From: Candidatus Atabeyarchaeum deiterrae
GTDB lineage: Archaea > Asgardarchaeota > Atabeyarchaeia > Atabeyarchaeales > Atabeyarchaeaceae
NCBI GenBank assembly: GCA_037310415.1
Contig: CP147780.1
Span: forward strand, 2,624,001 to 2,688,000
DNA length: 64,000 nt
Reading direction: 5' to 3'
The translations under genes and the position numbers were made by a program. This document shows, piece after piece, positions 16,761 through 40,664 of the stretch (positions are counted from its first letter, which is position 1; the number at the start of each line of letters is the position of its first letter). The notes under the pieces were generated by a model. The model made no database searches, was not told where the DNA came from, and was given only the letters and a program-made list of their open reading frames with translations.

Positions 16761-16882
16761 TCACATCTGGAAGCCTGTTTTGCCAGCACCCCATTTCGTC
16801 AAAGCAGTCTTAAGCTCCTCATGATCCTCAGCATAATCACTAACCTTAATCCCCTGCATCACAGCATCAATAGCCCACCTGA
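16761..16882 (-). repeat. RLP 3'-end copy 1 (outermost)
   Basis: Encodes AIDAVMQGIKVSDYAEDHEELKTALTKWGAGKTGFQM*, matching 39317-39438; A-rich tract to the left (U-rich on minus strand). Confidence 0.97.
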
Positions 16883-17016
16883 TGTTGCCTGTATGGATTT
16901 CGGCGCCTTGTGTCATCTGGCGAGTGCGCCTGCAGTGTGTTTCCCAAGAGGGATGGTCTTGGTTGACGCACAACGTTTAAGTAGCGGAAAGTTGGTGGGA
17001 TAATTGGTGGGATTAT

Positions 17017-17259
17017 ATGACCGACGAAGCTGTTATAGATGACAAAGGAAGGGTCGCCATTCCGAAACGGATACGGAACAAACTGGATCTGCGAGAAGGT
17101 ACTCGAGTAAAACTGGAACTCGAAGAGGGGAGAGTAGTAATAAGGAAACCCGTCGACCCAGCGGAATTCATCGACAAAATGGAAGGATTCATAAAAGAAG
17201 GTTCCCCCATTCAGAAAGCCGACCCCCTCAAACTCAAGGAGATATGGGAGAGACAATGA
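17017..17259 (+). CDS. vapB: AbrB/MazE-type antitoxin
   Basis: IDDKGRVAIPKRIR..L.L.EG motif; overlaps the PIN gene by ATGA. Confidence 0.88.
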   Translation: MTDEAVIDDKGRVAIPKRIRNKLDLREGTRVKLELEEGRVVIRKPVDPAEFIDKMEGFIKEGSPIQKADPLKLKEIWERQ

Positions 17260-17672
17260 TCTACGTAGATGCCAACTTCTGGATCTACTGGTTCGACCAG
17301 CGGCTACCAGAACATAAGCATGTTTTGAGACATATGAGGCAAGTTATCCAAGAAGGTGTCATTCTAAATGTCGTCACCCTCATGGAGGTAGCTCACTATT
17401 TCCGCAATTTAGCGGCAGAGGAATTTCGCGAGAAGCTTGACACGATTCAGAGCTTGACCACGTTGAAGGTCGTCAGCCTTGATCTGGATCTAGCTAAATC
17501 GGCATTCGACAAACTAGCGAAATATGCCAAGATTGGAGTCGGAAGCAGAGACAGTGTTATCATAGCGACGATGGAATCGGTGGGTACCAAGAGAATAGCC
17601 ACCCACGATAGGGTCTTTACAAGAATCAAAGGACTAGAAGTCATCGACCCGATTCCAGCCAACCTTGCATGA
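17256..17672 (+). CDS. vapC: PIN-domain toxin
   Basis: IYVDANFW, E, RDSVIIAT, ATHDRVF acidic PIN residues. Confidence 0.88.
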   Translation: MIYVDANFWIYWFDQRLPEHKHVLRHMRQVIQEGVILNVVTLMEVAHYFRNLAAEEFREKLDTIQSLTTLKVVSLDLDLAKSAFDKLAKYAKIGVGSRDSVIIATMESVGTKRIATHDRVFTRIKGLEVIDPIPANLA

Positions 17673-17730
17673 CTAACAAAAGCGAAATCCAAAAGAAGAT
17701 GTGGAGAGTTTATTGATTCTCATCAGGTTC

Positions 17731-17784
17731 TCACATCTGGAACCTGTCTTACCAGTACCCCACTTCGTCAAAGCGGTCTTAAGC
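17731..17784 (-). repeat. RLP 3'-end copy 2 (short, 1-nt deletion)
   Basis: tcacatctggaacctgtcttaccagtaccccacttcgtcaaagcggtcttaagc; encodes LKTALTKWGTGKTG. Confidence 0.95.
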
Positions 17785-17799
17785 ATTGTTCGCGCATGT

Positions 17800-18441
17800 C
17801 TATTTCCTGCGAAGCCGTGGAAGCAGTCGCCTGCTACGCTGCATGTAATCTCGGTACTCTTTCCCAAAGTGATCGAGCATCATTTTCTCCTCGCCATCGA
17901 TCCTCTTGTTGATTATCAGCAAGGTCAGTGCAGAAACGACTAGAATAAGCCAGTCAGCTGCTATCATTCCTGTCGCGAACATGAAAATCAATGACGCAGT
18001 GTACATTGGATGCCGGATTCGGTAATATGGCCCCCAGGTGACGAGTTTGTGTTTCGGTCTTATTTCTAGCTTGAATGTCCAGAACACTCCCAGAGTCCTG
18101 TGGGTCCAAACAAGCAGAACAAGTGATAGCACTGCTAGGATTACACCAATCACGATAACCCAAATTGGAGTCGGAAGCGGGATTGCACTCCATGCTCGCC
18201 ACGGTGGGTAGGCGATGTAGAGAAGCATTGGGATAGCCCAACCGATCGCCAGCATATCTTGGAGCACAGTGTCGCGTTTGCGCTCATATTTGCTACCACT
18301 CAATCTGAACCTCTTTTTCCTTAATTCAGGATCTATTTTCTTTACTTTGCGCTCGTAGTATGCTCTGATTCCTCCAAACGCGGACAAGAGAACCAGCATA
18401 GTCAATCTGAAAAACAGCTCTTCATCAACAGAAAAACACAT
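17800..18441 (-). CDS. Isoprenylcysteine carboxyl methyltransferase family membrane protein
   Basis: HKLVTWGPYYRIRHPMY, EEKMMLDHFGKEYRDY. Confidence 0.85.
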   Translation of the reverse strand: MCFSVDEELFFRLTMLVLLSAFGGIRAYYERKVKKIDPELRKKRFRLSGSKYERKRDTVLQDMLAIGWAIPMLLYIAYPPWRAWSAIPLPTPIWVIVIGVILAVLSLVLLVWTHRTLGVFWTFKLEIRPKHKLVTWGPYYRIRHPMYTASLIFMFATGMIAADWLILVVSALTLLIINKRIDGEEKMMLDHFGKEYRDYMQRSRRLLPRLRRK

Positions 18442-18614
18442 CTGTTCTACTAGCCTCCCACGATTTCACTCTTATGCCGTTGGTTCGAAAACTGTTCTCT
18501 AATCCTAACCGTTAGAGGCTTCGTTTTCTCTGAGCATAGTTAACCTTGTCATCAGACCAGCGACCTTATTCTTATATGTTTTTGCGGGAATATGGCGCTG
18601 GGAAGGCATGCGGA

Positions 18615-19349
18615 ATGAAACTATCATACACTGAGATTTTCAAGTATTCGGACATACTCAACCCAGTCTCTATAACCACATTACTCTTAGCAGGTAAGCT
18701 TGCCCAACTGGAACCCAAGAAGACAGTCCTTGACCTTGGAAGTGGAAAAGGTTTTCCTTCTCTATTGTGGGCGAGTGTATTTGGAGTTCGGGTTGAAGGA
18801 TTTGACTTGAACAGGAATTACGTCAAATACGCAAATTCACGTGCTAAGATGCTGAATCTTTCGAGTCGAGTCGAATATTCATATGGAGATGTCGGAGAAC
18901 TGAGGCTTAGCAGAAAATATGATGTGATAGCTTCTTTGGGGCTTGGAGTAGCGCAAGTATATGGAAGTAACGGTGATGCTTTGAGAGTGCTCAAAACTAT
19001 GCTGCATAAGGACGGTGTTTTGATCATGGCAGAACCTGTTTGGCTTACTAAACCTGTTTCGTCGAAAGTGCTGAAAGCTCTAGGCGAGGTTGAAGACAGC
19101 TTTGCTACCAAGCCTGAAATGTGGGAACTGTTGCAGAAATCTGAGTTTCAAGAGTTGGGAGATTTCGTTTCCTCTAAAGAAGACTGGGAAGTCTATGTTA
19201 GACCAACCTACTTTGCCATGCAAGAAATCGTCAAGAGTAAGAGCGACCTTGCAGAGGAAGCTGAAGGGGTCATAAATAGCTTCAGAGCTGAATATGATGC
19301 CGCCGGTCAACACTGGAACATGGTCCTTTGGGTTGTCAAATCTCGATAG
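18615..19349 (+). CDS. Class I SAM-dependent methyltransferase
   Basis: VLDLGSGKG motif I, YDVIASLG. Confidence 0.85.
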   Translation: MKLSYTEIFKYSDILNPVSITTLLLAGKLAQLEPKKTVLDLGSGKGFPSLLWASVFGVRVEGFDLNRNYVKYANSRAKMLNLSSRVEYSYGDVGELRLSRKYDVIASLGLGVAQVYGSNGDALRVLKTMLHKDGVLIMAEPVWLTKPVSSKVLKALGEVEDSFATKPEMWELLQKSEFQELGDFVSSKEDWEVYVRPTYFAMQEIVKSKSDLAEEAEGVINSFRAEYDAAGQHWNMVLWVVKSR

Positions 19350-19556
19350 GATCTCTTTGGATGCAAACGCGCGCTGGCAAGAAAAATCAGGAATCCAGCC
19401 TAAAGAGGGAGGGAGTCTTGGAGTCCCGCTCCACGCGTTCCCGAACCTACTTTGCTTCTACTTGCTTAGAGTCTACCCGAAAAGACTTAAATACAGTAAG
19501 CAATAGACAAGTCAACCACTCCTTGTATTTGATTCAGAGGCAAGGGAGGTACTCAA

Positions 19557-20180
19557 GTGAAAAGAAAAATGATCTGTGCTCTAGTGGTATTATCAGTGCT
19601 CTTAGCTTCCATGTCTACAATCACCAGCACAAGGGCGGCAGATTACAGCAAGGTCGGCGTGAAGCAAGGAGACTGGGCGGAATACGCAGTCTCTTCGACA
19701 GGACACACGTGGAACAAGGCGCGACTCGACATAACTGGCGTATCGGGAGCCCGAGCTAATCTCAGCCTCACAATATACTATCCAAACGGCACGATTGCCG
19801 GCACGGAAACCGGTTACGCAAACGTCACCAGTGGCAATGTTCCGTATTGGATGATTGCACCCAACCTCAACAAAGACGATCTCATTTATCCGGCCTCGTC
19901 CAACAAGATCAACGATACTGCTCAGATGATTGTTGCTGGAGCGACTAGGACAGTCAACCGTCTCGTATGGTCGAGCTATGGGAACCTTGCATGGGAATGG
20001 GATAGAACTACCGGGCTAACGATCAGATTCTACATTTCAGACGGTGGCTGGGACAACTACACTATGACAGCTACCAACATGTGGCTACCAGATTGGGTTT
20101 TACCTGTCGTGATCGGCGGTGCAGTGGGTGCAGTGGCACTGATCGCTGTGGCGGTCGTGATTATTAGGCGCAGACGCTGA
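19557..20180 (+). CDS. Secreted/surface protein with C-terminal TM anchor
   Basis: Signal peptide, VGVKQGDWAEY, C-terminal hydrophobic helix plus RRRR. Confidence 0.75.
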   Translation: MKRKMICALVVLSVLLASMSTITSTRAADYSKVGVKQGDWAEYAVSSTGHTWNKARLDITGVSGARANLSLTIYYPNGTIAGTETGYANVTSGNVPYWMIAPNLNKDDLIYPASSNKINDTAQMIVAGATRTVNRLVWSSYGNLAWEWDRTTGLTIRFYISDGGWDNYTMTATNMWLPDWVLPVVIGGAVGAVALIAVAVVIIRRRR

Positions 20181-20427
20181 TGAGTCGTTGCTTCTAGGCA
20201 AATTGCCAGCATCTCCCTTTTTTTATTGAAGTAGCACCCCATTGGAGAGACAGAACCACGTTAGAACGAGGGCACTAGAAAAGGATTCTATGACCAGACA
20301 AGCACCTAATTCAGGTACATGCAAAGGACAGAATACCTCCAGTCAGAGGCTTACCTCGATTGATGAAGTGACTCAATCCCAGTTCTAGGAACATGCGATA
20401 ACCATGAAGACCGTTAATTCGATCACG

Positions 20428-20805
20428 CTAATCTCCTATGAGCTCCACATCCTCGAGCCCTTTGAAGTGCTCATCGCCTGTCACGAGCCTCGCCTGTTCA
20501 CTTCTCGCTGTCGCATATATGATTGAATCCGCCATACCCAACCCGAGCTTCAGACTCACGTCGGCCGCGCTTATCGCCAGCTCCTCACTAAGAGGAACAA
20601 TCTTCGTTCTCGCCAGCTGCCCATACACTTCCAGTGCCATTTCCTCTCCCTTCTCTCGCCTCACTTTCTTGTAGACTTCGTAGACAATGATCGTCGGTGT
20701 TATCGTGTTCTCCTCACTTGCTTGCTCGACGTATTTCTCGTACTTGGCAGCGAGCTTACCAGCGGCAAAGTATTCAATCCACCCGTGGGAATCAAGCAGA
20801 ATCAA
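20428..20805 (-). CDS. vapC: PIN-domain toxin
   Basis: LLDSHGWIEYF, EVYK, ADSIIYATA, LVTGDEHF. Confidence 0.9.
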   Translation of the reverse strand: MILLDSHGWIEYFAAGKLAAKYEKYVEQASEENTITPTIIVYEVYKKVRREKGEEMALEVYGQLARTKIVPLSEELAISAADVSLKLGLGMADSIIYATARSEQARLVTGDEHFKGLEDVELIGD

Positions 20806-21011
20806 AATCTATCTCCCTCGTCCCTGATGTTTTCGGTTGATAGCCCCTTCAAGGAACCCTTCAGTTCTTTTGCTGGTCTTTGAGGGATGATGCTAATGAT
20901 ACCCTCTTTTTCTATGATAACCACTCTCTGCCCGGGCGTTATGTTTGCCCTTTTTCTCACCTGTTCTGGAATCACAACTTGGAATTTAGATGAAATCTTC
21001 ACGGTCGTCAT
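20802..21011 (-). CDS. vapB: AbrB/MazE-type antitoxin
   Basis: VKISSKFQVVIPEQVR; overlaps vapC. Confidence 0.88.
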   Translation of the reverse strand: MTTVKISSKFQVVIPEQVRKRANITPGQRVVIIEKEGIISIIPQRPAKELKGSLKGLSTENIRDEGDRF

Positions 21012-21188
21012 CGATACCCACCTAGTTCAACGAACGTTGCATCGATATATAAACTGTTCTATTAGCTTCTCAACGGTGCCAGGTTATTCGTCTCTTTGTG
21101 GAATCTGTTGAATATGGCAGTTACTTGAGGTCTTGCGAAGCTATAGACGAAAAGAAGGAAGTGAATTTCTGGTTTGGCTCATGTCAAC

Positions 21189-21304
21189 CCACATCTGGAA
21201 ACCTGTCTTACCAGCACCCCACTTAGTCAAAGCAGTCTTGAGCCCCTCATGCTCCTTAGCATACTCACTGACCTTAATCACCTGCATCACAGCATAAATA
21301 GGCC
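21189..21304 (-). repeat. RLP 3'-end copy 3
   Basis: acatctggaaacctgtcttaccagcaccccacttagtcaaagcagtcttgag...cctgcatcacagcat; stop codon mutated to TGG. Confidence 0.95.
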
Positions 21305-21527
21305 ACCAAAAAGTGTGAAAACCTTCCTCAATGTCACTAGGAAAGAGAGAGTTCTTAAGGGAATGACCCGCCTACTTAATTGAGGGAGAAATCAGCTCAA
21401 CTTGGCCCATGTATCGCACTATGCAAAGTCAGTTGGGCGGTTCTGAATCGATCGGTTTTGTACAAAGCAGTGATTAGCCGCGAAGAATTGAAGCGAGAGA
21501 TGTCTGACTCTTAGGCGGGACATCAAC

Positions 21528-21809
21528 ATGCAGGTAGAAGTGATAGAGAACAAGATTGCTCCCGTGCTCAAGCGTTACGGTGTCAGGAGAGCTGCGATTT
21601 TCGGCTCCATTGCTAGGGGAGAAGAAATGGAGAATAGTGACATAGATATCTTAGTTGAGTTCGAAGGAGACAAGAGTCTACTCGATCTAGCAGGACTTAA
21701 GATCGAACTTGAGGAAACGTTGGGGAGGAAAGTAGATGTCCTAACCTATGACTCTTTGCATCCCTTGCTTAGAGATCGAATTCTCAGCGAACAAAAGGTG
21801 ATCCTATGA
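21528..21809 (+). CDS. Minimal nucleotidyltransferase (MNT) antitoxin
   Basis: FGSIARGE...SDIDILVEF, LGRKVDV. Confidence 0.92.
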   Translation: MQVEVIENKIAPVLKRYGVRRAAIFGSIARGEEMENSDIDILVEFEGDKSLLDLAGLKIELEETLGRKVDVLTYDSLHPLLRDRILSEQKVIL

Positions 21810-22177
21810 AGAAGGATCCGCTGGTATTTGTCGAGCACATGCTGGAAAGCATGCAAATGATAGAGGAATACGTCGGAAGAACAACAAGAGAACAATTCAT
21901 GAGTTCACGACTAACGCAAGATGCAGTCATCAGAAGAATCGAGATCATTGGAGAAGCCGCAAAGAACGTACCAGAAGATGTGAAGAAAAGCTATCCCAGC
22001 ATACCTTGGAAAAGAATAGCCGGAATGAGAGACATTCTGATCCATGGATACTTTGGCGTCGATCTGGGGTTAACTTGGAAAGTTGCCAGTGAAGAGCTCG
22101 GAGAGCTAAAGAGCAAGATTATGAAGGTAAAGAAGAATCTGGAGGACATAAGAAAAGGTAGCAAAGCAAAGAACTAG
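21806..22177 (+). CDS. HEPN (DUF86) RNase toxin
   Basis: DAVIRRIEIIGEAAK, IPWKRIAGMRDILIHGY (RxxxxH). Confidence 0.92.
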   Translation: MKKDPLVFVEHMLESMQMIEEYVGRTTREQFMSSRLTQDAVIRRIEIIGEAAKNVPEDVKKSYPSIPWKRIAGMRDILIHGYFGVDLGLTWKVASEELGELKSKIMKVKKNLEDIRKGSKAKN

Positions 22178-22235
22178 ATGCTTTCTTTAAACCGAAAAAA
22201 GGAGAGGGGAATTGGCTTGATCCCCTCATGTTCGC

Positions 22236-22306
22236 TTAAATCTGGAAGCCTGTTTTGCCAGCACCCCACTTAGTCAAAGCAGTCTTGACCCCCTCATCCT
22301 CTTCAG
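22236..22306 (-). repeat. RLP 3'-end copy 4
   Basis: ttaaatctggaagcctgttttgccagcaccccacttagtcaaagcagtcttgac; purine tract to the left. Confidence 0.93.
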
Positions 22307-22452
22307 TTTGGACCTGCCTTGAATTTCGGGGCGGAGAACGCGTGCGTATGAACATTATATGGGAGAAGTACCGAGGTTCAAGATGACTAGCCAAAACGCT
22401 AGCAGATAATCGCTTCGATTGTATGACGTGTTTAGAGACTCAGGGATTATGA

Positions 22453-22941
22453 TTACGTCGGGGACGTGTGGCGCGTTTTGAGTTGGGTTGCTATCTTCTT
22501 TCCGAAATCCACGCATTTGGGAAGCTCGCCTTCTGCGACTGGGCCCTTCATTCCTGTGACCTTTATCGATAAGCCAGGAGTTATTAGCTTCAAACTTGGA
22601 ACTTTTTCACTTATCCTCTTCTCCATCTTCTTCACAACCTGCTCGAAGCTCTTACCTCCTCCTTGAGTATCGAAGACAGCCACCCATTTCGTCTTCAGAT
22701 CGAGTTTGCCGAGTTTATCGATGAATGCGACAATGCCGCGGGCAGGTCTGGTGGCATGGTTTGGCGACCCTATCAACACTGCGTCCGACCTAGCCACTTT
22801 TTCAAGGTTGACTTCCTTGACATCAGCAATAGCGGTTTCTATTTCCGCGATTTCTCTCATTCCCTCCACGATCTTCTCCGCCACGAGCTTTGTGTTACCA
22901 TACTTTGTGTCGTAGACGACAGAAACTTTCACCATGGGCAA
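22453..22941 (-). CDS. Flavodoxin family protein
   Basis: YDTKYGNTKLVAE, IGSPNH, AVFDT. Confidence 0.85.
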   Translation of the reverse strand: MPMVKVSVVYDTKYGNTKLVAEKIVEGMREIAEIETAIADVKEVNLEKVARSDAVLIGSPNHATRPARGIVAFIDKLGKLDLKTKWVAVFDTQGGGKSFEQVVKKMEKRISEKVPSLKLITPGLSIKVTGMKGPVAEGELPKCVDFGKKIATQLKTRHTSPT

Positions 22942-23177
22942 TCGTCTCCCATCATGTTCTTGATTTCAGGAACGATTATTATAAAACTTTCTTTGCCTCA
23001 TCTTGTAGCATGCGTGAATGTTCCTAAATTAGTTTTCCTCAGCATATCTCTCCATCTTGATGCATGCACAGTTTTGACAAGCCTGTCTGGAAATTTCGTC
23101 TCCAGTAGCGCGCGCTCGAAGGTATGAATTTAAGTTAAAACATAAGCTTAAATTTCCAAGTGTGAAAGCTACTTGTT

Positions 23178-23996
23178 ATGGGTATCGTTTATGCTTGCAT
23201 AGCACCGCATGGGTCTGAGGTTATTCCTGAACTTGCAGGCGACAAGTTGGAGGCTTTCAGCGAAACAAGAAGAGGCATGGAAGAGTTAGCCAGACAAATG
23301 AAGAAGCATAGTCCACACACAATAATCATAGCCACGCCTCACGGCCTAAGACTCGACCACACAATCGGCATAGTAACCTCGCAATATTCTGCAGGAAACC
23401 TAGAAGACAAAGGTAAAACGGTCAGCGCCCGTTTCAAATGCAACCGTCAACTCGCACAAAAAATCTATCAAACCGCCAAAAAAGCAGGATTACCCGTTGT
23501 AGCCGCGAATTATGGCACTAGCGAAGGACCAGACTCTTGCATGCCAATGGATTGGGGCGTGCTAATACCATTATGGTTTTTTGGCGCGCAAGAAAAGAAA
23601 AAACCTCGAATAATCATCGTGGCCCCTTCCAGAGAAATCCCGCTCACGCAACTTGTGGAATTTGGCAAAGTCATAGCTCGAACTTCAGAAACATCAAAGA
23701 GGAAAATAGCCTTCGTCTCCAGCGCAGACCAAGGACACGCACACGACAAGACTGGACCGTACGGCTTTCACCCAGCATCCAAGAAATATGACGAGCTAGT
23801 GATAAAAGCCATAAGAGAGAACAACTTGAAGCAAATACTTACGCTGGATTTACAGTTTGTGGAAGACGCGAAGCCTGATAGTCTCTGGCAAATAGCCATT
23901 CTTGAAGGCGTGTTAGAACATGTACCCATGAAATCAAGGTTCGTCTCATATCAGGCACCAACGTATTTTGGTCTGATGTGTGCCGATTTTGAGTGA
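23178..23996 (+). CDS. LigB/Memo-like (class III extradiol dioxygenase subunit B fold) protein
   Basis: IAPHG, ATPHG, MDWGVLIPL, SSADQGHAH, PTYFG. Confidence 0.8.
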   Translation: MGIVYACIAPHGSEVIPELAGDKLEAFSETRRGMEELARQMKKHSPHTIIIATPHGLRLDHTIGIVTSQYSAGNLEDKGKTVSARFKCNRQLAQKIYQTAKKAGLPVVAANYGTSEGPDSCMPMDWGVLIPLWFFGAQEKKKPRIIIVAPSREIPLTQLVEFGKVIARTSETSKRKIAFVSSADQGHAHDKTGPYGFHPASKKYDELVIKAIRENNLKQILTLDLQFVEDAKPDSLWQIAILEGVLEHVPMKSRFVSYQAPTYFGLMCADFE

Positions 23997-24061
23997 CTGA
24001 CCCTCGCGCGTGCTTCATCTCCGATCTTCCTCATGATTACTTATTCTCCTTCTTGTTGCAC

Positions 24062-24190
24062 CTACATCTGGAAACCAGTCTTACCTGCACTCCACTTCGT
24101 CAAAGCAGTCTTCGGCGCCTAATGCTCCACGGCATACTCATCAAGTTTAATGCCATGCATCATCACATGATTAACCTGACTGAAAGCTCT
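24062..24190 (-). repeat. RLP 3'-end copy 5 (decayed)
   Basis: ctacatctggaaaccagtcttacctgcactccacttcgtcaaagcagtctt...ctgaaagctct. Confidence 0.92.
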
Positions 24191-24386
24191 CACCCGCATT
24201 TTCAAGCCATCTTGGCGCATGTAGGACATCACAAATGCTTGCTAATACTCATAGACACGGTTGAAAACCCCAAGAAGAACATGAAAATAGAAAATGGAAG
24301 TGCCAAGAAGTAACACTCTTTTTAAAGCAGGACGCCCAAAAGTGAAGATCAAAAGAACAAGAAGGCGACGAGGAGGTGCTGATAGA

Positions 24387-24818
24387 GTGAAGATTGGTGA
24401 AGAGACATGGAATCTTTTACAGAAGCATCTGGGCTACACAAGTGAAGAGATGAGGATATTCAGAGAGAATCGAAGGAATGAGGATGTTCTCTCCAAGACG
24501 CCTGAACTCATGAACAAGACGATAATTGCTGAGGTGGTTGAATCCCATGGATGCAATAGTCAGCATAAGGTCGGAGACAAGTTCATTTTTGACGGAGCGG
24601 GCAACCTCATAACGAAACTCTGCCCCAAGAGAATTTGCGTCTACGCCTTGAATCCAATCGCAATGCAAATCTTCACATTGAACGAGTTACTATATGCAGG
24701 TGTCAAACCCAATGACATGAGATTCAAACGGGCAGGTTGCTTTGATGTGGGAGTACAATGTGGCGGATGGGGTCATATCGTAATGGAGATCAGGATGGAG
24801 GATCGCAAGAAAAAGTGA
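24387..24818 (+). CDS. Conserved hypothetical Cys-containing protein
   Basis: GGAGGTG RBS; AEVVESHGCNSQHKVGDKF, CPKRIC, CFDVGVQCGGWG. Confidence 0.65.
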   Translation: MKIGEETWNLLQKHLGYTSEEMRIFRENRRNEDVLSKTPELMNKTIIAEVVESHGCNSQHKVGDKFIFDGAGNLITKLCPKRICVYALNPIAMQIFTLNELLYAGVKPNDMRFKRAGCFDVGVQCGGWGHIVMEIRMEDRKKK

Positions 24819-24950
24819 TAACATAGGAACAAGATCATCACGTCATACGCGAATAGGTTACGGCAGCTTTGGCTTTAACATCTCAGCAAAAACAAATGAT
24901 GCCCAAAAAAGAAAAAGTAGGGTGATGCTGATTATTCCCTCTAGGTTCAC

Positions 24951-25085
24951 ATACATCTGGAAGCCTGTCTTACCAGTACCCCACTTCGTAAGTGCAGTCT
25001 TAAGCTCCTCATGCTCCTCAGCATACTCACTAACCTTGATCCCCTGCATCACAGCATCAATAGCCAGACGAAACACACGAGCACC
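24951..25085 (-). repeat. RLP 3'-end copy 6 (longest)
   Basis: Encodes GARVFRLAIDAVMQGIKVSEYAEEHEELKTALTKWGTGKTGFQM; stop mutated to TAT. Confidence 0.97.
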
Positions 25086-25120
25086 ATCACCTTATCATTC
25101 AGAGTTCGCAGATAGCTTGC

Positions 25121-25531
25121 TTAAGGAGCGGCAACCGTCTTCAGGTCAGGTATACTTTCGAAATGGTCTACGTTTCTGGTAAGCATGGCGCAGTCGTTCA
25201 CAAGTGCTGTCGCGCCAATGAAAATGTCTCTGAAGCCGATCATTTTCCCATCCAATTCGAGATCATTAAGTATCCTCCCTGCTGTCTCCGCGACTTTCAC
25301 ATCAAAATCCATGACAACAAGCCTGTCAAGGAGTCTTGTTACTGCTGATATGCCCTCAGTTGGCTTCCTAGATTTGTATGCTCCATAGTAGAGTTCGAAA
25401 GCGTTGACTGTTGTTGTTGACAACATCACGCCTCTATTCTCAAAGTCAGCTATGAGATTGACAACCTTCTCATTGTATCTTAGGTTGTCGATGAGGACAT
25501 CTGTGTCTATGCATATCTTGAGGAATTCCAT
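25121..25531 (-). CDS. vapC: PIN-domain toxin
   Basis: ICIDTDVLID, FELYYGA, RDIFIGATAL, LTRNVDHF. Confidence 0.9.
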   Translation of the reverse strand: MEFLKICIDTDVLIDNLRYNEKVVNLIADFENRGVMLSTTTVNAFELYYGAYKSRKPTEGISAVTRLLDRLVVMDFDVKVAETAGRILNDLELDGKMIGFRDIFIGATALVNDCAMLTRNVDHFESIPDLKTVAAP

Positions 25532-25767
25532 CTGCTCCACCCTTTGTGTAGGCTTTCCATGATTTCTCTCAGTTCTTCGTCGGTCAGCTTCCATGTCCCG
25601 GCAAGATCAGTGATCTTCTTCTGTTTCCCTTGGGGCATCTGGATCATACTTCTAATTGCCTCGTCAACCGAAACTGGCCGCTTGAGCTTTGCCTGGAGCC
25701 TGCCCGCGATCTCGCAGAGCCTCCTGTAGGTCTCATCATCAACTCTAAGGGACTTGCTCAATTCCAA
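25507..25767 (-). CDS. vapB: VapB-type (RHH) antitoxin
   Basis: KSLRVDDETYRRL, SVDEAI, DLAGTWK; directly upstream of and overlapping vapC. Confidence 0.8.
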   Translation of the reverse strand: MELSKSLRVDDETYRRLCEIAGRLQAKLKRPVSVDEAIRSMIQMPQGKQKKITDLAGTWKLTDEELREIMESLHKGWSRWNSSRYA

Positions 25768-25945
25768 TCACTCAAACCACTTTATCCACTTTGTGGAATA
25801 AATATCTTTTGCATCAACAAGTAGCGGTTGAGAAGAGACAATCTCCTCAGTAATTCGACTCAGAGGAACATGATCGAAAAGCAAGTTATCTACGACAAAC
25901 CGATGACCTAAGAAATCAAAACAGGGCCCACTTTCACCTATTTCC

Positions 25946-26075
25946 CTAACAACTGGAAGCCTGTTTTGCCAGCACCCCACTTCGTCAGCGCGGTCTTAAG
26001 CTCCTCATGCTCCTCAGCGCAAACACTGACTTTAATGCCCTGGATCACGGCATTTATAGGCTGATGAAAAGCGCG
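25946..26075 (-). repeat. RLP 3'-end copy 7
   Basis: ctggaagcctgttttgccagcaccccacttcgtcagcgcggtcttaagctcctcatgctcctcagc...; encodes INAVIQGIKVSVCAEEHEELKTALTKWGAGKTGFQ. Confidence 0.95.
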
Positions 26076-26352
26076 AATAGCAGTTGTACACATCGTCACC
26101 TCTTCAGCATTACCTAGTTATCCTAGCGGTCTCCGCTTCTGTTAACTTGGCGAGCGATAGGTGGGAGTGTTAATAGTCATGGGACAGTATCTGTCTAGCC
26201 CCTGATTCTTTCTAGACTAAGAGCATTCAAACTGCTGTCAAGGTGGAAGGTGAATTATTTATAACCTCGGAAAAGAAAATGAAATATGTACAATTCACTC
26301 CAATGAAAGGAGTGAAGGGATAAATGGGGCGCTAGAACTGAGAACAGAACTC

Positions 26353-27300
26353 GTGTTCCTGAATATCGCAACTAATGATCTGAGGGCGGCAAAGCTCCTG
26401 CTTGCTGGGAAGCTTTACGCGCAGTCCATTTTCTATATGGAGCAAAGCGTGGAGAAGGCGGTCAAGTCGCTAGGAATAAGGCGTGGCGACATTACGCCTA
26501 AGGAAGCGAGACGGTATGGTCATAGACCATTACGCTACTATCTTAAATTCTTTGAGAATATCAAGACACAGATTAATGAGACACAAATAGAGACTGAAGA
26601 CATGGAAAAGAAGCACCCGATACTGGCTGACCTCTTTGTAGAACTCGGCATCTCTAGAATTGGAGCTCGATTGAATAAGGGAAAGAAGATGTATGAAGAT
26701 CTATTGAAATTGGCTTCGAGGTTTGAAGAAGAAGAGAAGCAAGATCCCGTGAAAGAAGAAAGAGCATTCAACATCGCAATTTCTGGCAGACCACTTGACC
26801 GTTATATTACTTGGTGGCGAGAACAAGAAAAACAACTCTACCGTTCTTGGCGCACGATTGGCCAGATCGAATCAAAGTCTTACAGAGATGAACTCGAAAG
26901 AGACATTCCAAGATTCCAAGAGATATTAAGAAAGCTTACTCCAAGACTGATTGCAGAACTACCTTCTGAAGACAAACTCACAACGCAAGGCTTAGAAAAA
27001 GCCATTGAAGGACTCCAAAAACCCAAAACCCTATCCCAGATCGACCGATTTGCATTTGAGTACGCAGGAAACAAGTTGTACGACGAGACTCAAGAATTCT
27101 TCTTCATCGGATCGCTGTTCTACTTAGCTCTACTGTTCTTTCCTCACGCCACTCGCGCTAGGTATCCAGATGAAGGGGTTGAGAATCCACTGTCTTTTTA
27201 TAGTGCCAGAAACCCACTAGTCCGAAGACTCGCCCAATTCATAGAAATTGCCGAGCACACACTGGATTTCATGAATAAATGGATTTTGGGGAACCCTTAG
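26353..27300 (+). CDS. HEPN domain protein with large helical insertion
   Basis: A.NDLRAAKLLL...Y.QSIFYMEQSVEKAVKS...GH, C-terminal TRARYPD. Confidence 0.7.
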   Translation: MFLNIATNDLRAAKLLLAGKLYAQSIFYMEQSVEKAVKSLGIRRGDITPKEARRYGHRPLRYYLKFFENIKTQINETQIETEDMEKKHPILADLFVELGISRIGARLNKGKKMYEDLLKLASRFEEEEKQDPVKEERAFNIAISGRPLDRYITWWREQEKQLYRSWRTIGQIESKSYRDELERDIPRFQEILRKLTPRLIAELPSEDKLTTQGLEKAIEGLQKPKTLSQIDRFAFEYAGNKLYDETQEFFFIGSLFYLALLFFPHATRARYPDEGVENPLSFYSARNPLVRRLAQFIEIAEHTLDFMNKWILGNP

Positions 27301-27353
27301 CACACCACTCAACATAGAGAGCATTAAGCCACGTCCGACGACAATTAATACGC

Positions 27354-27465
27354 CCATTCTAACCCTGTTTTACCAGCGCCCCACTCAGTGAGAGCGGTCT
27401 TCAGCTATTCGTGCTCCTCAACTTAATTAGTGACTTTGATGCCTTCCGTCACCGAATAAATAGCT
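27354..27465 (-). repeat. RLP 3'-end copy 8 (most decayed, internal stops)
   Basis: Translates AIYSVTEGIKVTN*VEEHE*LKTALTEWGAGKTG. Confidence 0.88.
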
Positions 27466-27544
27466 TCCCAAGAACTACCAAGGTCACACAACGCGATGCA
27501 CAATAATGTACTGACGTCCGCGATCATGAGGCTCAGTTGCTTTT

Positions 27545-28564
27545 CTACACTTTGCCTCGCAAGACTTCTTCTGCGTATTTCACCAACAACTTCGTGATCA
27601 GAAGCACGCTCTCTGCATCTGCTCTCGTGACCACAACATCCTGTGGTTGATATTTCGGAGATTTCTTGAAGTCTTCTAAGTGCAAGTCGACGGATGAAAG
27701 ATCATTGAATAATGCGCACGCGCGAGACCATTTCACTCCATAGGCAAAAGTGCTTTTCCCAAGTTTTTCCCCCATCATCTTGTCAAGAAGACTCCCGACT
27801 TCTCTGCAATTAGCGTAGACTCCCTTTGTGTTCCACTGTCTAAAGCAGTTCTCTGCGTCTTCCACGTAGGCCCATGCTTCCTTAATGAGCCTCTCACCGC
27901 TTGGAATGCGAACAACGAAATACTCTCCAAGTCCTAGCTTCGGGGCAAAATCATTGATCCAGTCGGCAGAAGTTATCATCAGGTCACGGTTATAATGAGT
28001 GAGTCTATATGCAATGAAGCTTCGAGAAGTCCCTTCGCCAGTAAGAAGCTTGGGTTCGTTGGCGACTTGAGGGCGCATCCCCTGCTGTATGTGTATCAAT
28101 GGCGAGTATGGCGTGTCGCCATAAACTCCACGGATCTCTTGCTTAGCCAATCCCAGTGAACTGGGAGGTACAGCGTACACAGGAGAGATGGAAGCACGAT
28201 TCTCGGACGAAACAGTATGGAGGTGCAATGCTATTTTAACATCACCTTTTCTGTCTTCCATTCGCCGTGTCTCAAGATATTCAAGATCCAACGAAGTCAA
28301 GGCGATAACGAGCGTAGCTCTCCAAGTCTGCTTGGTTGGCGTCTGACGTTGAATCGAAAGATCTGTTGCCGCGACTTCGCCATACAAACCTTCCTGCAGA
28401 AGCAAGCTCCTAGCACCCAGCATCTTCTTATCATCAGTTTCGATATAACCATCAAGCCACAGAATCGCCTCTTCACGAATGGCATAAGTGATCTCTAGAT
28501 CAAACGCAAGGGCTGGAAGAGTCAGTTGATCATATGGTCTGATGCTTATCTTCTCCAAATCCAA
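27545..28564 (-). CDS. Hypothetical protein, paralog of 35188-36213, C-terminal HEPN-like helical domain
   Basis: Shared motifs IETDD.KM.G, D.KGDV, S.DWI.D..P.LGLGE.FV, GVY.NCR, DLHLE, ADAE.VLLI.K. Confidence 0.7.
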   Translation of the reverse strand: MDLEKISIRPYDQLTLPALAFDLEITYAIREEAILWLDGYIETDDKKMLGARSLLLQEGLYGEVAATDLSIQRQTPTKQTWRATLVIALTSLDLEYLETRRMEDRKGDVKIALHLHTVSSENRASISPVYAVPPSSLGLAKQEIRGVYGDTPYSPLIHIQQGMRPQVANEPKLLTGEGTSRSFIAYRLTHYNRDLMITSADWINDFAPKLGLGEYFVVRIPSGERLIKEAWAYVEDAENCFRQWNTKGVYANCREVGSLLDKMMGEKLGKSTFAYGVKWSRACALFNDLSSVDLHLEDFKKSPKYQPQDVVVTRADAESVLLITKLLVKYAEEVLRGKV

Positions 28565-28840
28565 GTTTTCACCCCTCCTCTGACGGTCAGGGATAGAACG
28601 TAGCGATTCTATTTCAATACGATCCTATTAACAATGTCGTATCCAAAGGACAATTGAGTTTGTTGACCGCATGAACGATCATGATAGACGCTTACAAGCT
28701 AAGTGCTTTAGCGCAACATTCTTCAATATTTTTAAAAACTCAGTGCGTCGAACGTAGTTTCAAGGTTCTAATTGAATTAAAGAATCACCTAGAAGCATGA
28801 TTAGTTAGTCACCAATCGGCATTCAAGAGCCGAAACGATA

Positions 28841-28936
28841 AAGAAGAAGGGAATTTACTGGTTCCGTCTAGCTTCCCTACATCTGGAAACCTGTCTCACC
28901 TGCACCCCACTTAGTCAGAGCAGTCTTTAGCTCCTC
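28841..28936 (-). repeat. RLP 3'-end copy 9 including near-identical 3' UTR/terminator
   Basis: gggaatttactggttccgtctagcttccctacatctggaaacctgtc matches 39287-39335; encodes EELKTALTKWGAGETGFQM*. Confidence 0.97.
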
Positions 28937-36213: not shown

Positions 36214-36344
36214 TGAGAGTGAAGAGTATTAGGTGAAAGAACCCGAGAAACGCAAGAGAAGACAGTTAGTGAAATACTTAAACTTCTGTAAGGCAGTTTC
36301 CGAACGACTGAAGAGTCATGCGAGAATTGCTGGAGGGCGGTTCC

Positions 36345-39023
36345 ATGAGCTATCCAAAACATGAAGCAAAAAAGATAGTCAAAGAACTCGTGGATTTCTA
36401 TGATTCGAACAAAGACAAGCTGAAAGGAATTAGCGAGACAGACACAAGAGTGAAGTTCATAGATCGGCTTTTCGAATCGTTGGGATGGGATGTCTGGGGG
36501 AGGAGAATTCCCGACGAGGTGCAAAGAGAGGAAGGGGTCAAAGGCAGAGAGCCCACTAAGAAAAAAGCGGATTATAGTTTTCGTATTGCTGGCGTAACCC
36601 ACCTTATTGTCGAAGCCAAAGCACTAGGAGAAGACTTGGAAAGAAAAGATTTCATTAAACAAGCCATATCATATGCCTACAACAAGGCGTGTTCTTGGGC
36701 CGTTTTGACGGATTTCAGAATCATTAAGATCTTCTATGTGGATAGGGAAAGTGACTTTCCATTCTACATGATCAGGCTAGATGATGTCAAGGGATTTGAT
36801 GAGAACTTTGAAATACTTTGGTTTCTTTCAAAGGAGAGTTTCTTGAACAACTCACTCGAAAGTGAAGCAATTAAGCGCGGGATAAGGAAGGAAAAGATAT
36901 CGATCGACAAGGCGTTGTTTGAGGACCTTAGAAAATGGAGAGAATTGCTTTCTAAAGACATCAGAAGAAGATATGCTGACAAATATGCCCCACTTGTTAT
37001 TGACGAGATAGTCCAGAGTATTATAGACAGACTGATTTTCATCAGGAAAGCCGAGGATTCGGAACTAGAAGAGAAGAAACTAGATCAGTTGACTCGAAGA
37101 TTCAACGACAATACTTTTCTAGATCTTATGAAAGTATTCGCTGAATACAAAGAGAAATACAATAGTAGACTATTCGGAGAGAGCAGGACCGAAGAAGAAG
37201 TAGTGGCGGGTAAAACGGAGAAAGCCGAAGTTGACAAAATAGTGATTAGCAACAATGTCATTTCACAAGTTGTTCGCAGCATGTACACATCCGAGGGAAG
37301 CGACATAGAGTACAATTTTGCGGTCATAGATGCGGACATTCTCGGGAACATATATGAGCAGTATCTCGCCTTCATCTTGGGGCAAACACCAACCAAGACG
37401 AAGCTAGAGGGGGGAATTGCACATAGAAAAGAGCAAGGGATATACTATACGCCGACCTATATTGTTGATTACATTGTTAGAAATACTGTCGGTGAAATCC
37501 TGAAGAGCAAGAAACTCGAAGACTTGGAGAAAGTAAGGATCTTGGATCCTGCATGTGGTTCCGGCTCGTTCTTGATAAAGGTCTTTGATGTTATCAATGA
37601 GTACTACACGAATGGAAAGAGCGAGTTACCTTATGCTAGAAGAAAGGAGATCCTAGAGCGACATATTTTTGGTGTTGATCTAGATCCAAAAGCCGTAGAA
37701 ATTGCTCAACTCAATCTTTCGTTGAAAATTGCAGAAAAAGGGCACAGATTGCCGTTACTGCAGAAGAACATTAAGTGTGGCAACAGCATAATCAGTGACA
37801 AATCGATAGGCGGTGACAGCGCTTTCGTCTGGGATACCGAATTCCCTGACATAAGGAAAGATGGTTGGTTTGATGTGATAATTGGAAATCCTCCATACTT
37901 CAAGATCTTTGAGAACGATCCTTTGAACAAGACGGTCGATTATCAGGAAATAAAATCTGGAATGATGAATGCTTCGGCTCTCTTCATAAATAGGTCCCTT
38001 AGACTACTCAAGAAGGGCGGCTACTTGGGGATGATTGTCCCGAAGATGCTGGCATTTACGGACTCTTGGGACAAGATAAGGGACAAACTTCTACGGAACT
38101 TTAGGATCCTGAAGGTTGTTGACTGTGGAAAAGCGTTCAGAGGAGTTCTGCTCGAACAGATTATCTTCATACTCAAGAACGAGTCTGAGGATTTGGATAG
38201 AAACCTGATAACCGTAGGCGAACTCAATAATCAAGTGATAGCCGAGACAGCCAAAGTTCCGCAGAAACTCTGCCTAGAAGAGAATAGCATACATCTAGAG
38301 CCCAAGCAGATTGCCTATGAAATTAAAAGGAAGATAGAGAGATCAAAGACCACTCTGGGAGATGTATCGCATATAATGCTTGGATTGGGAATTCAAGGAA
38401 AGGATTTCTTTACCGACGAATACATGAGTGGATATGAAAAGGTTCTGAGAGGAGATGACATTCAGAGATATGTCATAAGAGGATGTAGGTTCTACAATCC
38501 AAACGATAAAAACATCGTCAAGATAAAAGATACAATTGAGAGGTTCAAGACGTCTCACATAGTAGCGCAAAGAATAGTAGCACACATACAAGATCATATC
38601 AAATTGACTTGTGCACTCGATGAAGAGGGCCTTTTTTCCTTCAATACTGTCACCAATATTTTCGTCATGGACAAGAAGTATCCGATGGAGTACATTCTGG
38701 CTCTACTGAATTCAAATGCAGTCCAGTACTATACTTACAAGTTCATTTACAACAATGCTATCAGGTCCATGGATTTCTATAAGGCGTATGCAAAGAAGAT
38801 CCCTCTGCCTAAATATGACAAAAACCGGCAGGATGGTATTGCGAAACTTGCAAGGGGACTGATAACTATGCACAAAAAACTCTTTGATTTGGGTGGTCAG
38901 CAGACTAACGAAACACAGAGGTTGAAAGATGAGATAGAGAGAACACAAAAGGAGATTGACAACGGAATCTACGCATTGTACGGTCTCGATCAAGATGAGA
39001 TGAAGATAATCGAGAAGCGTTAG
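36345..39023 (+). CDS. Type IIG restriction-modification enzyme (HsdR-N-like nuclease + N6-adenine MTase + TaqI-like TRD)
   Basis: ADY...VEAK...QAISYA...LTDF; GIYYTP; ILDPACGSGSFL; IGNPPY; LALLNS. Confidence 0.9.
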   Translation: MSYPKHEAKKIVKELVDFYDSNKDKLKGISETDTRVKFIDRLFESLGWDVWGRRIPDEVQREEGVKGREPTKKKADYSFRIAGVTHLIVEAKALGEDLERKDFIKQAISYAYNKACSWAVLTDFRIIKIFYVDRESDFPFYMIRLDDVKGFDENFEILWFLSKESFLNNSLESEAIKRGIRKEKISIDKALFEDLRKWRELLSKDIRRRYADKYAPLVIDEIVQSIIDRLIFIRKAEDSELEEKKLDQLTRRFNDNTFLDLMKVFAEYKEKYNSRLFGESRTEEEVVAGKTEKAEVDKIVISNNVISQVVRSMYTSEGSDIEYNFAVIDADILGNIYEQYLAFILGQTPTKTKLEGGIAHRKEQGIYYTPTYIVDYIVRNTVGEILKSKKLEDLEKVRILDPACGSGSFLIKVFDVINEYYTNGKSELPYARRKEILERHIFGVDLDPKAVEIAQLNLSLKIAEKGHRLPLLQKNIKCGNSIISDKSIGGDSAFVWDTEFPDIRKDGWFDVIIGNPPYFKIFENDPLNKTVDYQEIKSGMMNASALFINRSLRLLKKGGYLGMIVPKMLAFTDSWDKIRDKLLRNFRILKVVDCGKAFRGVLLEQIIFILKNESEDLDRNLITVGELNNQVIAETAKVPQKLCLEENSIHLEPKQIAYEIKRKIERSKTTLGDVSHIMLGLGIQGKDFFTDEYMSGYEKVLRGDDIQRYVIRGCRFYNPNDKNIVKIKDTIERFKTSHIVAQRIVAHIQDHIKLTCALDEEGLFSFNTVTNIFVMDKKYPMEYILALLNSNAVQYYTYKFIYNNAIRSMDFYKAYAKKIPLPKYDKNRQDGIAKLARGLITMHKKLFDLGGQQTNETQRLKDEIERTQKEIDNGIYALYGLDQDEMKIIEKR

Positions 39024-39270: not shown

Positions 39271-39290
39271 CCAAAAAAAAGAAAGAGGGA
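39271..39290 (-). terminator. U-rich archaeal terminator tract of RLP gene
   Basis: ccaaaaaaaagaaagaggga on + strand, ~30 nt past the TAG; similar tracts flank most repeat copies. Confidence 0.55.
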
Positions 39291-39316
39291 AATTTACTGA
39301 TTTCCGTCTAGCTTCC

Positions 39317-40664
39317 CTACATCTGGAAACCTGTCTTACCAGTACCCCACTTGGTCAAAGCAGTCTTAAGCTCCTCATGCTCCTCAGCATACTCACTAAC
39401 CTTAGTGCCCTGCATCACAGCATCAATGGCCTGCCTGAATGCTCTTGCACCTGCAGCTGGACCATTCGGGTGAGCGTGGATTGCGGGCTCATCAATTATA
39501 GATGGGCTTTCCGCCGCCTGACCCGATCATGATGTCAAAGCCAAGATCATTGCACACCTTGTCAACATGACCCGCAGTAATCCCACCACTAGGCATAGGC
39601 ATCGTAGGCTTAATATGCTGCAACGGAAACTGCATACGCTTCGCAATCATCAAAAACTTATCAACAAGTATAGGGGCTTTTCCGTACGGGGCCGGGTCGA
39701 GTAGTATGTCTGCGCCACATATGCGTGGTAGTTTGCTCATTATGAGTGTGGGTGATACTCCTGTTATGGGGCTGTAGCTCCATGCGCCTGCAATATCCAT
39801 GTGACCCATTATCGGCAAGGTGTTTGGTTCTTCTGCTACCATTCTTAGGGCGTCGAATCCTATTGCGAGGTAGTTGATGAGTAGTGCGTTTCCGCCTGCT
39901 TGTTTGACTGTGTCGGCGTTTTCTAGGAGTTTGTCGACTTTGTCGGTTATGTTGCAGCAGTATAGGGTTTTTTCGCCTTTTTCTTTGTTTGCTTTTTCTG
40001 CCATTTCCATGTAGAGTGGGACTCTGTCTGCGATTTTGTTGTATTCTGGTTCGGCGATGATTTCGTCGTCTTTGATGCAGTCTGTTCCGCCTACTGCGGC
40101 TCCGTAGAATAGGTCTTTGCCGACTTGTGGTGTGTATCCTGTTTTGGGTTTTATCATGTTGTTGAGTAGGGGTCTTTTGGGTATTTTCATGAGGGTTCTT
40201 ATTCCTTTGAGTCCGAGTTTTGGTCCTTTGAATCCTTTGAGCCAGCTTTTGGGGAACCATAGGTCCATGAGTTTGATTCTTCCGCCCATGCTGATGTTGC
40301 CGACTACGGTTGAGAGTAGCATGGGGATTTGGGCTCCGAAGTTTTCCCATGGGAAGCCTACGGCTATGATCATGTTGCGGTGGTCTACTTCTTTTGGTAC
40401 GGTGTAGACGTATTCGGGTGTTTCCCATATGCCGAGTACTTTTGCCTGGCGTTTGATTTTGAGTTCGATTGTTTCGCCTGGGACTGGTGTCCAGGTTCCT
40501 GTTGATTGTTCGAGGGCTGCCATTTCTGCTACGTCGATGACTGGTAGTGCGGGGTTGAGGCCTGCGAAGTAGAATCCGATGACGTATTTGTCTGTGTCGA
40601 GGCCGTCGAAGAATCCTTCTGGTTGGGCTTCGATGGGCATTTCGATGGGTTTTTCTTCTCCCAT
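39317..40664 (-). CDS. RuBisCO-like protein (form IV RLP), spliced join(39509..40664, 39317..39480), 439 aa
   Basis: EQSTGTW, GFKGPKLG, IKPKTG, DCIKDDE, MPSGG; exon 2 supplies IHAHPNGPAAGARAFRQAIDA...ALTKWG; GHMDIAG replaces the HRA motif of true RuBisCOs. Confidence 0.9.
39481..39508 (-). other. 28-nt bulge-helix-bulge/loop archaeal intron in RLP mRNA
   Basis: GCGG-AA^A-GCCCAUC-UAUAAUU-GAUGAGC-CCGC-AA^U; removal restores GGC GGA AUC CAC (GGIH) in frame. Confidence 0.85.

Follow-up and report, generated by a model that had tools for sequence, protein, structure and literature searches.

A candidate bulge-helix-bulge intron that interrupts the coding sequence for a RuBisCO-like protein in an Asgard archaeon

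The split gene and its RNA motif

The gene for a RuBisCO-like protein (RLP) lies on the minus strand, at positions 40664-39317, of a 64,000-nucleotide stretch of the Candidatus Atabeyarchaeum deiterrae genome (contig CP147780.1, positions 2,624,001 to 2,688,000), which was analysed as a whole and is called the window below. The gene is split by 28 nt (39508-39481) that cause a frameshift and bring in tandem TGA stops, and it is these 28 nt that we consider as a candidate bulge-helix-bulge (BHB) intron of the mRNA. The unspliced open reading frame (ORF), 40664..39492, encodes 390 amino acids and ends ...GSGGGKPIYN, followed by TGA TGA (39494-39489). The continuation conserved in the family, IHAHPNG...TKWGTGKTGFQM, is found in the +1 frame and terminates at TAG 39319-39317. 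Deletion of 39508-39481 gives GGA AUC CAC and an ORF of 1320 nt, or 439 amino acids, that reads GSGGG-IHAHP; the predicted spliced junction is GGCGGCGGAA/TCCACGCT, and the peptide across it would be GSGGGIHAHPNGPAAGAR. A sequence-only reading of this DNA had described the end of the ORF, the tandem TGA, the continuation in another frame and the 1320-nt frame left by removal of 39481-39508, and on recheck all of these statements were correct.

By its domains and its nearest structures, the gene is a form IV member of the RuBisCO large-subunit superfamily. The product contains both PF02788 (RuBisCO_large_N) and PF00016 (RuBisCO_large), and the closest solved structures are 3fk4 and 2oek, which match at full length (E about 1e-71, down to 6e-72, over residues 45-432, with an intron-less allele as the query). 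The scores of exon 1 alone fall below both NCBIfam cut-offs, at 253 versus 409 bits for NF007095 (mtnW) and 185 versus 497 for TIGR03326 (form III RuBisCO), and the protein can thus be filed only as an uncharacterised RLP. It resembles the DK-MTP-1-P enolase or YkrW-type RLPs (3fk4, 2oek) in the GGGIH(G/A)HPNG loop, the very loop that is split here, but differs from them in its mtnW score, which is under the cut-off. A form III RuBisCO paralogue is encoded in the same genome (200388-201452). In the supplementary tables of the paper describing the Atabeyarchaeia genomes, the form III rbcL is the only rbcL, with zero transcripts, and the RLP gene is absent (PMC11291895). Neither ARAGORN nor Rfam gave a match within the window.

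In the RNA, the insert and its flanks can be arranged as a BHB motif, which runs GCGG, AAA, GCCCAUC, UAUAAUU, GAUGAGC, CCGC and AAU in 5' to 3' order (Table 1). The central helix (H) is fully paired in the present genome (GCGG/CCGC, 4/4). Bulge 1 is a clean 3-nt bulge; bulge 2 has no more than a single G-C pair to close it and is otherwise part of a 6-nt loop, AAUCCA. The outer helix (h) amounts to 1 bp, and the intron hairpin (h') is paired 7/7 in two of the relatives described below, L032 and L033. Because the closure of bulge 2 is weak, the motif belongs to the relaxed HBh' class and not to the strict hBHBh' class. The minimum free energy structure given by RNAfold reproduces the BHB arrangement exactly.

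The archaeal splicing endonuclease EndA cuts between the second and third residues of each bulge (PMC2738675). Both the fold drawn in the sequence-only reading (a GCGG/CCGC helix, an AAA bulge, an intron hairpin and an AAU bulge or loop) and the cuts placed there, AA^A and AA^U, were supported, the former by the RNAfold structure and the latter by a junction identical to that of intron-less alleles once 39481-39508 is removed. When the 28 nt were shuffled within the real exon context, an equal or better motif arose within ±2 nt in 0.6% of shuffles; at a single position drawn at random from the genome, a canonical HBh' is met with a frequency of 0.3%. Of nine registers tested, only shift 0 yielded a BHB class, and the same register restores the 439-residue ORF.

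Table 1. Predicted parts of the split RLP gene (window positions) and insert sites in RLP orthologues (codon positions)
Feature	Position	Strand	Description	Basis or remark
Exon 1	39509..40664	-	Codons 1-385 and base 1 of codon 386; ends ...GGC GGC GGA A	Pfam domains; colinear with uninterrupted orthologues
Predicted intron, 28 nt	39481..39508	-	Starts at base 3 of bulge 1, ends at base 2 of bulge 2	TGA TGA inside
Exon 2	39317..39480	-	Last two bases of codon 386 (Ile) to codon 439, and TAG	+1 frame relative to exon 1
Central helix H, 5' strand	39511..39514	-	GCGG, 4 bp, exon sequence (GG-C GG-A codons)	Pairs with 39483-39486
Bulge 1	39508..39510	-	AAA; 5' cut predicted at 39509/39508	Fold and cut rule
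Intron hairpin h'	39487..39507	-	GCCCAUC (39507-39501) / GAUGAGC (39493-39487), 6/7 pairs, C.A mismatch, 7-nt loop UAUAAUU	
Central helix H, 3' strand	39483..39486	-	CCGC, intron sequence	Fold and six-sequence pairing
Bulge 2	39480..39482	-	AAU, replaced by AGU or AUU in relatives; 3' cut predicted at 39481/39480	CCA follows
Site a	codon ~288		L033, 33 nt; L052, 36 nt	In-frame, stop-bearing
Site b	codon ~294		Atabeyarchaeia-1 and L050, 22 nt each	
Site c	codon ~301		L034, 31 nt	
Site d'	codon ~321		G037, 30 nt	Canonical hBHBh', 9-bp h'
Site d	codon 328/329		G033, 32 nt; G037, 59 nt	Two other families
Site e'	codon 380/381		L043/L051 and L050, 31 nt each	
Site e''	inside His codon after Ile386		L050, 34 nt	Canonical hBHBh'

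Inserts in relatives and in other genes

The 28 nt are genuine constituents of the DNA, being present without difference in two independent metagenome assemblies. Contigs X1 rec7 (4742 nt) and X5 rec11 (475 nt), which come from independent samples, span the site with 0 differences, and the insert-bearing site was found again in further independent assemblies (CP147779.1, two JGI metagenomes and a Logan assembly). The genome itself is a single closed contig of 2,756,679 bp, and the published Atabeyarchaeia genomes are complete, with manual curation and long-read validation (PMC11291895). An assembly or sequencing artefact, in favour of which there is the general risk of metagenome-derived genomes and nothing further, can be given a negligible chance against these independent contigs, the recurrence in other assemblies and the closed, curated genome.

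A scan of genome-collection contigs for relatives returned only Atabeyarchaeia-1 (SRVP18_Atabeyarchaeia-1, CP147779.1; L032), whose gene is 84% identical in nucleotides over the spliced coding sequence and has a 28-nt insert at the identical site. Among metagenome relatives, the same-site 28-nt insert is also found in L033, in L044/L045 and in two gene fragments of L053. Six distinct same-site insert sequences could therefore be compared (the window, Atabeyarchaeia-1, L033, L044/L045 and the two partial gene copies in L053). Across them H pairs in every cell (24/24), a G-C being replaced once by G-U, and h' pairs in 41/42 cells; in a control with the structures slid by 1-3 columns, 34-44% of cells were paired. 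Pair 2 of h' shows a compensatory switch from C-G to U-A, while pair 3 is U-A, C-G or U.G in the relatives and a C.A mismatch in the present genome.

The middle base of bulge 2 is variable, being A, G or U. The BHB rule places this variable base inside the intron, so that every copy gives GGA-AUC (Gly-Ile), like the intron-less alleles; alternative cut registers give Val or Phe at the junction in some copies. The exon bases that help to build the motif, GGC GGA AUC, are invariant in all six intron-bearing copies, and the same synonymous positions vary in 7 copies without the intron, in a comparison that ignores relatedness.

Exactly these 28 nt are absent from L034, L046, L047, L048/L049 and L052, which read GGG-I-HAHP at this point. 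The intron-less gene of L048/L049 has 99.5% amino acid and 95.7% nucleotide identity to the spliced window gene. When the mature coding sequences are placed in a tree, a gene with the intron and a gene without it come out as sisters three times. As the copies of the intron resemble one another in sequence, we infer that it arose once and was then, several times, precisely lost or removed by replacement of the allele.

Selection on the downstream part of the gene was estimated from the full-length genes. For codons 386-439 the pairwise ratio of nonsynonymous to synonymous change (dN/dS) is 0.02-0.09, at a dS of 0.4-1.3 in most pairs; the upstream part gives 0.08-0.15, and the downstream exon is thus as low or lower. 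For pairs of intron-bearing genes, the downstream values are 0.056 (window and L032), 0.062 (window and L033) and 0.052 (L032 and L033). Purifying selection on an exon 2 that is out of frame in the DNA indicates that the two exons have been translated as one frame for as long as these lineages have been diverging. Furthermore, excision of 0-3 inserts by the BHB rule brings 11 of 11 close copies to exactly 1320 nt, or 439 amino acids, with no other lesion.

Further inserts were located by aligning orthologues to intron-less genes, with the junctions defined by homology. The RLP family has eight insert sites in all, comprising the present one (site e) and the seven other sites of Table 1. Sites b and e are occupied in L032 (22-nt insert at 2383-2404), a and e in L033, c in L034, e' in L043, a in L052 and three sites, b, e' and e'', in L050; three others carry none. 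Each sibling insert has exactly one BHB register within ±4 nt, which is the protein-restoring one, and shuffles of the individual introns matched the observed motif in 0.05-4% of trials (eight inserts tested). Site d is shared by G037 (L029; a complete 3.6-Mb genome of another family) and G033 (L023), with H as (A/U)UGG/CCAG and a bulge AAU. The second, 30-nt insert of G037, which is in-frame and has a 9-bp hairpin, is found ~7 codons upstream of that site. No interruption is seen in about 25 Asgard orthologues at a greater distance, nor in hundreds of archaeal homologues. In GenBank the Atabeyarchaeia-1 gene is split into proteins of 296 and 59 amino acids (WXG44939.1, WXG45110.1).

A loose scan for BHB motifs joined to open frames inside the RLP gene was dropped in favour of the homology-defined junctions, as it returned hundreds of chance matches. 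At ~1206-1250 of L050, the 34-nt insert at site e'' ends GCGGUAUCG/ACGCU, which nearly repeats GCGGUAUUC/ACGCU, the exon sequence at its 5' boundary; this intron may have arisen from a local tandem duplication of exon sequence.

The genome encodes what splicing of this kind would need. There are two proteins with an EndA catalytic domain, of 238 and 198 amino acids. For the former, the nearest matches are catalytic subunits from the heterotetrameric enzymes of A. pernix, S. tokodaii and P. aerophilum (3p1z_B, 3ajv_B, 2cv8, 2zyz_B; E down to 2e-46), and the latter is a divergent paralogue, with structural subunits among its weaker matches. In genome order, the two EndA loci fall in the regions 215557-215811 (minus strand) and 625628-625888 (plus strand). 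RtcB is also encoded, and is intact. As judged from these sequences, the EndA pair fits an (alpha-beta)2 enzyme, which together with the epsilon2 form makes up the two EndA types that cut relaxed motifs (PMC5829648). Two EndA paralogues have been reported for 44 of 60 Asgard genomes (bioRxiv 10.64898/2026.10.13.758758).

Three other split genes in the genome carry BHB-type inserts as well, namely cbf5, glyA and valS. The insert in cbf5 is a 41-nt hBH motif (genome 395677-395717) with H as CUCU/AGAG, bulges AGA/UAA and an outer helix GGGA/UCCC; it is placed between bases 1 and 2 of the catalytic Asp codon, where the crenarchaeal cbf5 intron is also found, and after excision the gene reads ...GHGGTLDPRVTG... 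In glyA, excision of a 41-nt insert (genome 652709-652749) restores ...AEGWPGERVYAG..., and in valS, excision of a 31-nt insert (genome 457151-457181) restores ...GIDRNGLPIE... The splits in these last two genes, both of them housekeeping genes, are at contiguous profile positions within conserved motifs. Since valS is essential and interrupted, some mechanism of removal must operate. A search of the genome found no other copy of the 28-nt intron or of the cbf5, glyA and valS introns beyond chance 12-14-mers, and hence no evidence of recent transposition. A motif-only genome scan, which sought BHB motifs able to join neighbouring open frames, gave no more matches under the real pairing rules than under a decoy pairing table, whatever the stringency; a census of BHB introns thus needs homology.

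The long valS match also has one in-frame TGA (457178-459382), which may be another insert. As to tRNA genes, ARAGORN reported only 24 genome-wide, nearly all with predicted introns, many of them oddly placed and some implausibly long. The published figure for Atabeyarchaeia is that 92-95% of tRNA genes are intron-bearing, often at non-canonical positions, in a paper that does not mention mRNA introns (PMC11291895). The ARAGORN outcome fits this figure, and standard tRNA finders thus fail in this genome.

Probable splicing and its alternatives

The 28 nt are most probably a BHB intron of the mRNA, cut by EndA and joined by RtcB, in the coding region of a form IV RLP gene, and the comparative evidence for this is unusually strong. 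That a protein-coding gene here holds such an intron was the core of the sequence-only reading, and it is supported by the conservation of the insert at the same site, by alleles that lack exactly these nucleotides, by selection on exon 2, by the sibling inserts and by the presence of EndA and RtcB. The pre-mRNA would fold so that the GCGG of the exon pairs with the CCGC of the intron, flanked by the AAA bulge and the AAU bulge or loop and stacked on the 7-bp intron hairpin. The heteromeric EndA would cut after base 2 of each bulge, and ligation by RtcB would then yield ...GGC GGA A/UC CAC... and a 439-residue protein with its GGGIHAHP phosphate-binding loop intact. Unspliced RNA would give the 390-residue product ended by the tandem UGA. 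We infer from the comparison of sequences that this cleavage and ligation take place in vivo.

Several observations weigh against a spliced intron. With six sequences, the covariation is no better than in column shuffles. The regional folding energy from RNAfold is also no better than that of shuffles (z = -0.26), and for this reason it was not used as support. The motif is relaxed, with bulge 2 closed by one G-C pair at most and an outer helix that is not conserved. An exon-exon helix, GGCG/CGCU, that the sequence-only reading had counted in favour of the fold is lost in four of the six sequences of the alignment, where pair 8-49 is broken. The RNA data consist of assembled contigs from one small metatranscriptome, with thin coverage of the RLP gene (39318-39514 and 39652-39873). 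A single RNA contig spans the site (X6 rec17, 39318-39514, depth 4.5, 5 mismatches); it retains the 28 nt, and the spliced junction was not seen among these thinly covering contigs, in which minor forms are dropped. The retaining contig may represent pre-mRNA, DNA carry-over or unspliced message, and because contigs lose minor forms it neither shows nor excludes splicing. Finally, the exon-2 frame is open through the insert in the window, L032 and L033, and for this one site the ORF logic by itself is also compatible with a +1 frameshift.

The open frame speaks for translational recoding, that is, a +1 frameshift or a hop over the insert with no RNA splicing, comparable to the bypass in phage T4 gene 60. 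The GGA codon, followed by a stable hairpin and immediate stops, is likewise superficially similar to gene 60. However, no matching landing codon is present (there is no GGA before AUC), and a frameshift would add ~9 residues to the invariant GGGIHAHP loop, where the intron-less relatives show none. The siblings of 30, 33 and 36 nt are in-frame and contain stop codons, and the inserts of 22, 31, 32, 34 and 59 nt would each need a recoding event of their own, whereas a single BHB rule covers them all. The compensatory changes, moreover, keep an RNA helix with its ends at the excision points. We consider recoding highly unlikely. Much the same can be said of an element that acts in DNA, such as a miniature mobile hairpin or a recombination site tied to the adjacent cassette array, moved as DNA and never spliced from RNA. 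It would suit the patchy presence and absence between sister lineages, the presence of the insert in the L053 gene fragments, and the fact that eight further copies of the 3' end of the gene, beginning ~25-50 nt past the insert, make up an array described below. Against it, the 28 nt are single-copy in the genome and have no target-site duplications, and the inserts at the seven other sites and in cbf5, glyA and valS are unrelated in sequence yet share the same BHB geometry and cut register. The DNA of two samples is uniformly insert-bearing, yet the downstream exon is under selection. The probability of such an element therefore appears very low.

A decaying gene has also to be weighed, in which a 28-nt insertion killed the function and the likeness to a BHB motif is accidental. 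The gene is accessory, a form III RuBisCO paralogue exists, the locus adjoins the variable array, and the sole RNA contig over the site is unspliced. These points are set against a dN/dS of 0.02-0.09 at a dS of ~1 for the downstream exon among intron-bearing copies, the resolution of every close copy to 439 codons without a further lesion, the retention of the insert with compensatory changes between lineages 84% identical in DNA, and an insert of the same kind in the essential valS. On this evidence from sequence a pseudogene is strongly disfavoured, and we would allow it only the slightest chance.

If the 28 nt are a spliced intron, a regulatory role, as raised in the sequence-only reading, is possible. 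We read the intron instead as a member of a population that turns over neutrally or selfishly, as tRNA introns do, since regulation accounts less well than neutral or selfish persistence for how quickly it comes and goes and for its likeness to the tRNA introns.

Known systems and the neighbouring array

The statement in the sequence-only reading that mRNA introns of this type are rare, with cbf5 as the classic case, agrees with the literature: as of 2020 cbf5 was stated to be the only one reported, apart from a case in a Haloferax 5' untranslated region (UTR) that the paper making this statement itself presents (PMC7714728). A search of openly accessible literature found nothing on BHB introns in Asgard mRNAs, and the word mRNA is absent from a 2026 preprint on Asgard tRNA introns (bioRxiv 10.64898/2026.10.13.758758).

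The crenarchaeal cbf5 intron (Watanabe 2002; Yokobori 2009, PMC2738675) is likewise a short BHB or relaxed BHB intron of a coding region, cut between bulge residues 2 and 3 by a heteromeric endonuclease; it too breaks the frame within a catalytic motif, and some relatives have it and others lack it. In contrast, the RLP intron interrupts a metabolic gene in an Asgard host, with eight sites in the family and up to three per gene (L050), and it is known from sequence comparison, whereas splicing of the crenarchaeal intron has been demonstrated experimentally. The intron of HVO_1309 in Haloferax volcanii (PMC7714728) is another mRNA substrate of an archaeal EndA outside tRNA and rRNA, but it differs in being in a 5' UTR, in its strict BHB motif and in its homodimeric alpha'2-type enzyme, and its cleavage has been demonstrated in vivo and in vitro.

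The non-canonical tRNA introns of Atabeyarchaeia/Freyarchaeia and of Thermoproteales (PMC11291895; bioRxiv 10.64898/2026.10.13.758758) are alike in host lineages and in size (~15-60 nt), and also in their hBHBh', HBh' and relaxed classes, their A-rich bulges and their repeated gain and loss between close relatives. Unlike them, the RLP intron is in an mRNA, where the reading frame constrains excision and codons form the exon half of the motif. In eukaryotes, the HAC1 and XBP1 mRNAs are cut by IRE1 at two stem-loop sites and the exons are joined by a tRNA-type ligase (RtcB in metazoa), which changes the C-terminal frame. The likeness to the RLP intron is one of working mode; the endonuclease (IRE1 and not EndA/TSEN), the motif and the regulation by stress differ, and no homology is implied.

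Relative to cbf5, what is new is the gene, the phylum and the scale, with eight sites, presence or absence at the level of alleles and several genes per genome. Eight sites in a 1.3-kb gene, with at most three per copy, and sister alleles that differ by the exact presence of an intron point to a dynamic population of mRNA introns. In the intron-rich Asgard archaea (Atabeyarchaeia and the G037 lineage), we think it likely that EndA/RtcB splicing is obligatory for many protein genes, among them essential ones such as valS, glyA and cbf5, and that introns are gained and precisely lost on the scale of strain divergence. A wider population of mRNA introns in these archaea is apparently unpublished. 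If this is true, they would be the first prokaryotes with multi-intron protein genes handled by a protein-only splicing machinery, and they would offer a testable model of how coding genes with introns can persist where transcription and translation are coupled, in the nearest kin of the eukaryotes. If confirmed in RNA, mRNA splicing can be routine in a prokaryote near the eukaryotic ancestor, which raises the mechanisms of intron gain and loss and the coordination of splicing with translation. At a practical level, automatic annotation splits or truncates intron-bearing genes, so that metabolic reconstructions of these lineages miscount genes.

The 3' end of the RLP gene is also part of a repeat array. 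Counted inward from the stop codon, the final ~110-135 nt of the gene recur in eight further copies, in the same orientation and with 78-91% identity, within 16763-28936 of the window (~16763-16882, 17709-17784, 21188-21304, 22237-22306, 24037-24198, 24928-25065, 25942-26053 and 28852-28936, with the gene end at 39290-39480). The tail copies reach no further than ~39455. Metagenome depth over 39318-39438 is inflated 5-40x, with joints going back ~111. The repeats bound modules of accessory genes of 0.9-3.5 kb, the last module being 10.4 kb, which contain GNAT acetyltransferases, methyltransferases, LigB, HEPN, a HerA-like ATPase and an enzyme resembling type IIG restriction-modification systems. 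The same pattern of tail repeats is seen in the relatives L052, L053 and L054, and the array looks like the product of serial site-specific integration at the gene 3' end, or like an integron-type cassette array. An ORF of 901 amino acids (36318-39023, plus strand) is found directly downstream of the RLP 3' end, in the gene-proximal 10.4-kb module; read by eye, its sequence looks like a fused type IIG restriction-modification enzyme with the NPPY motif of N6-adenine methyltransferases.

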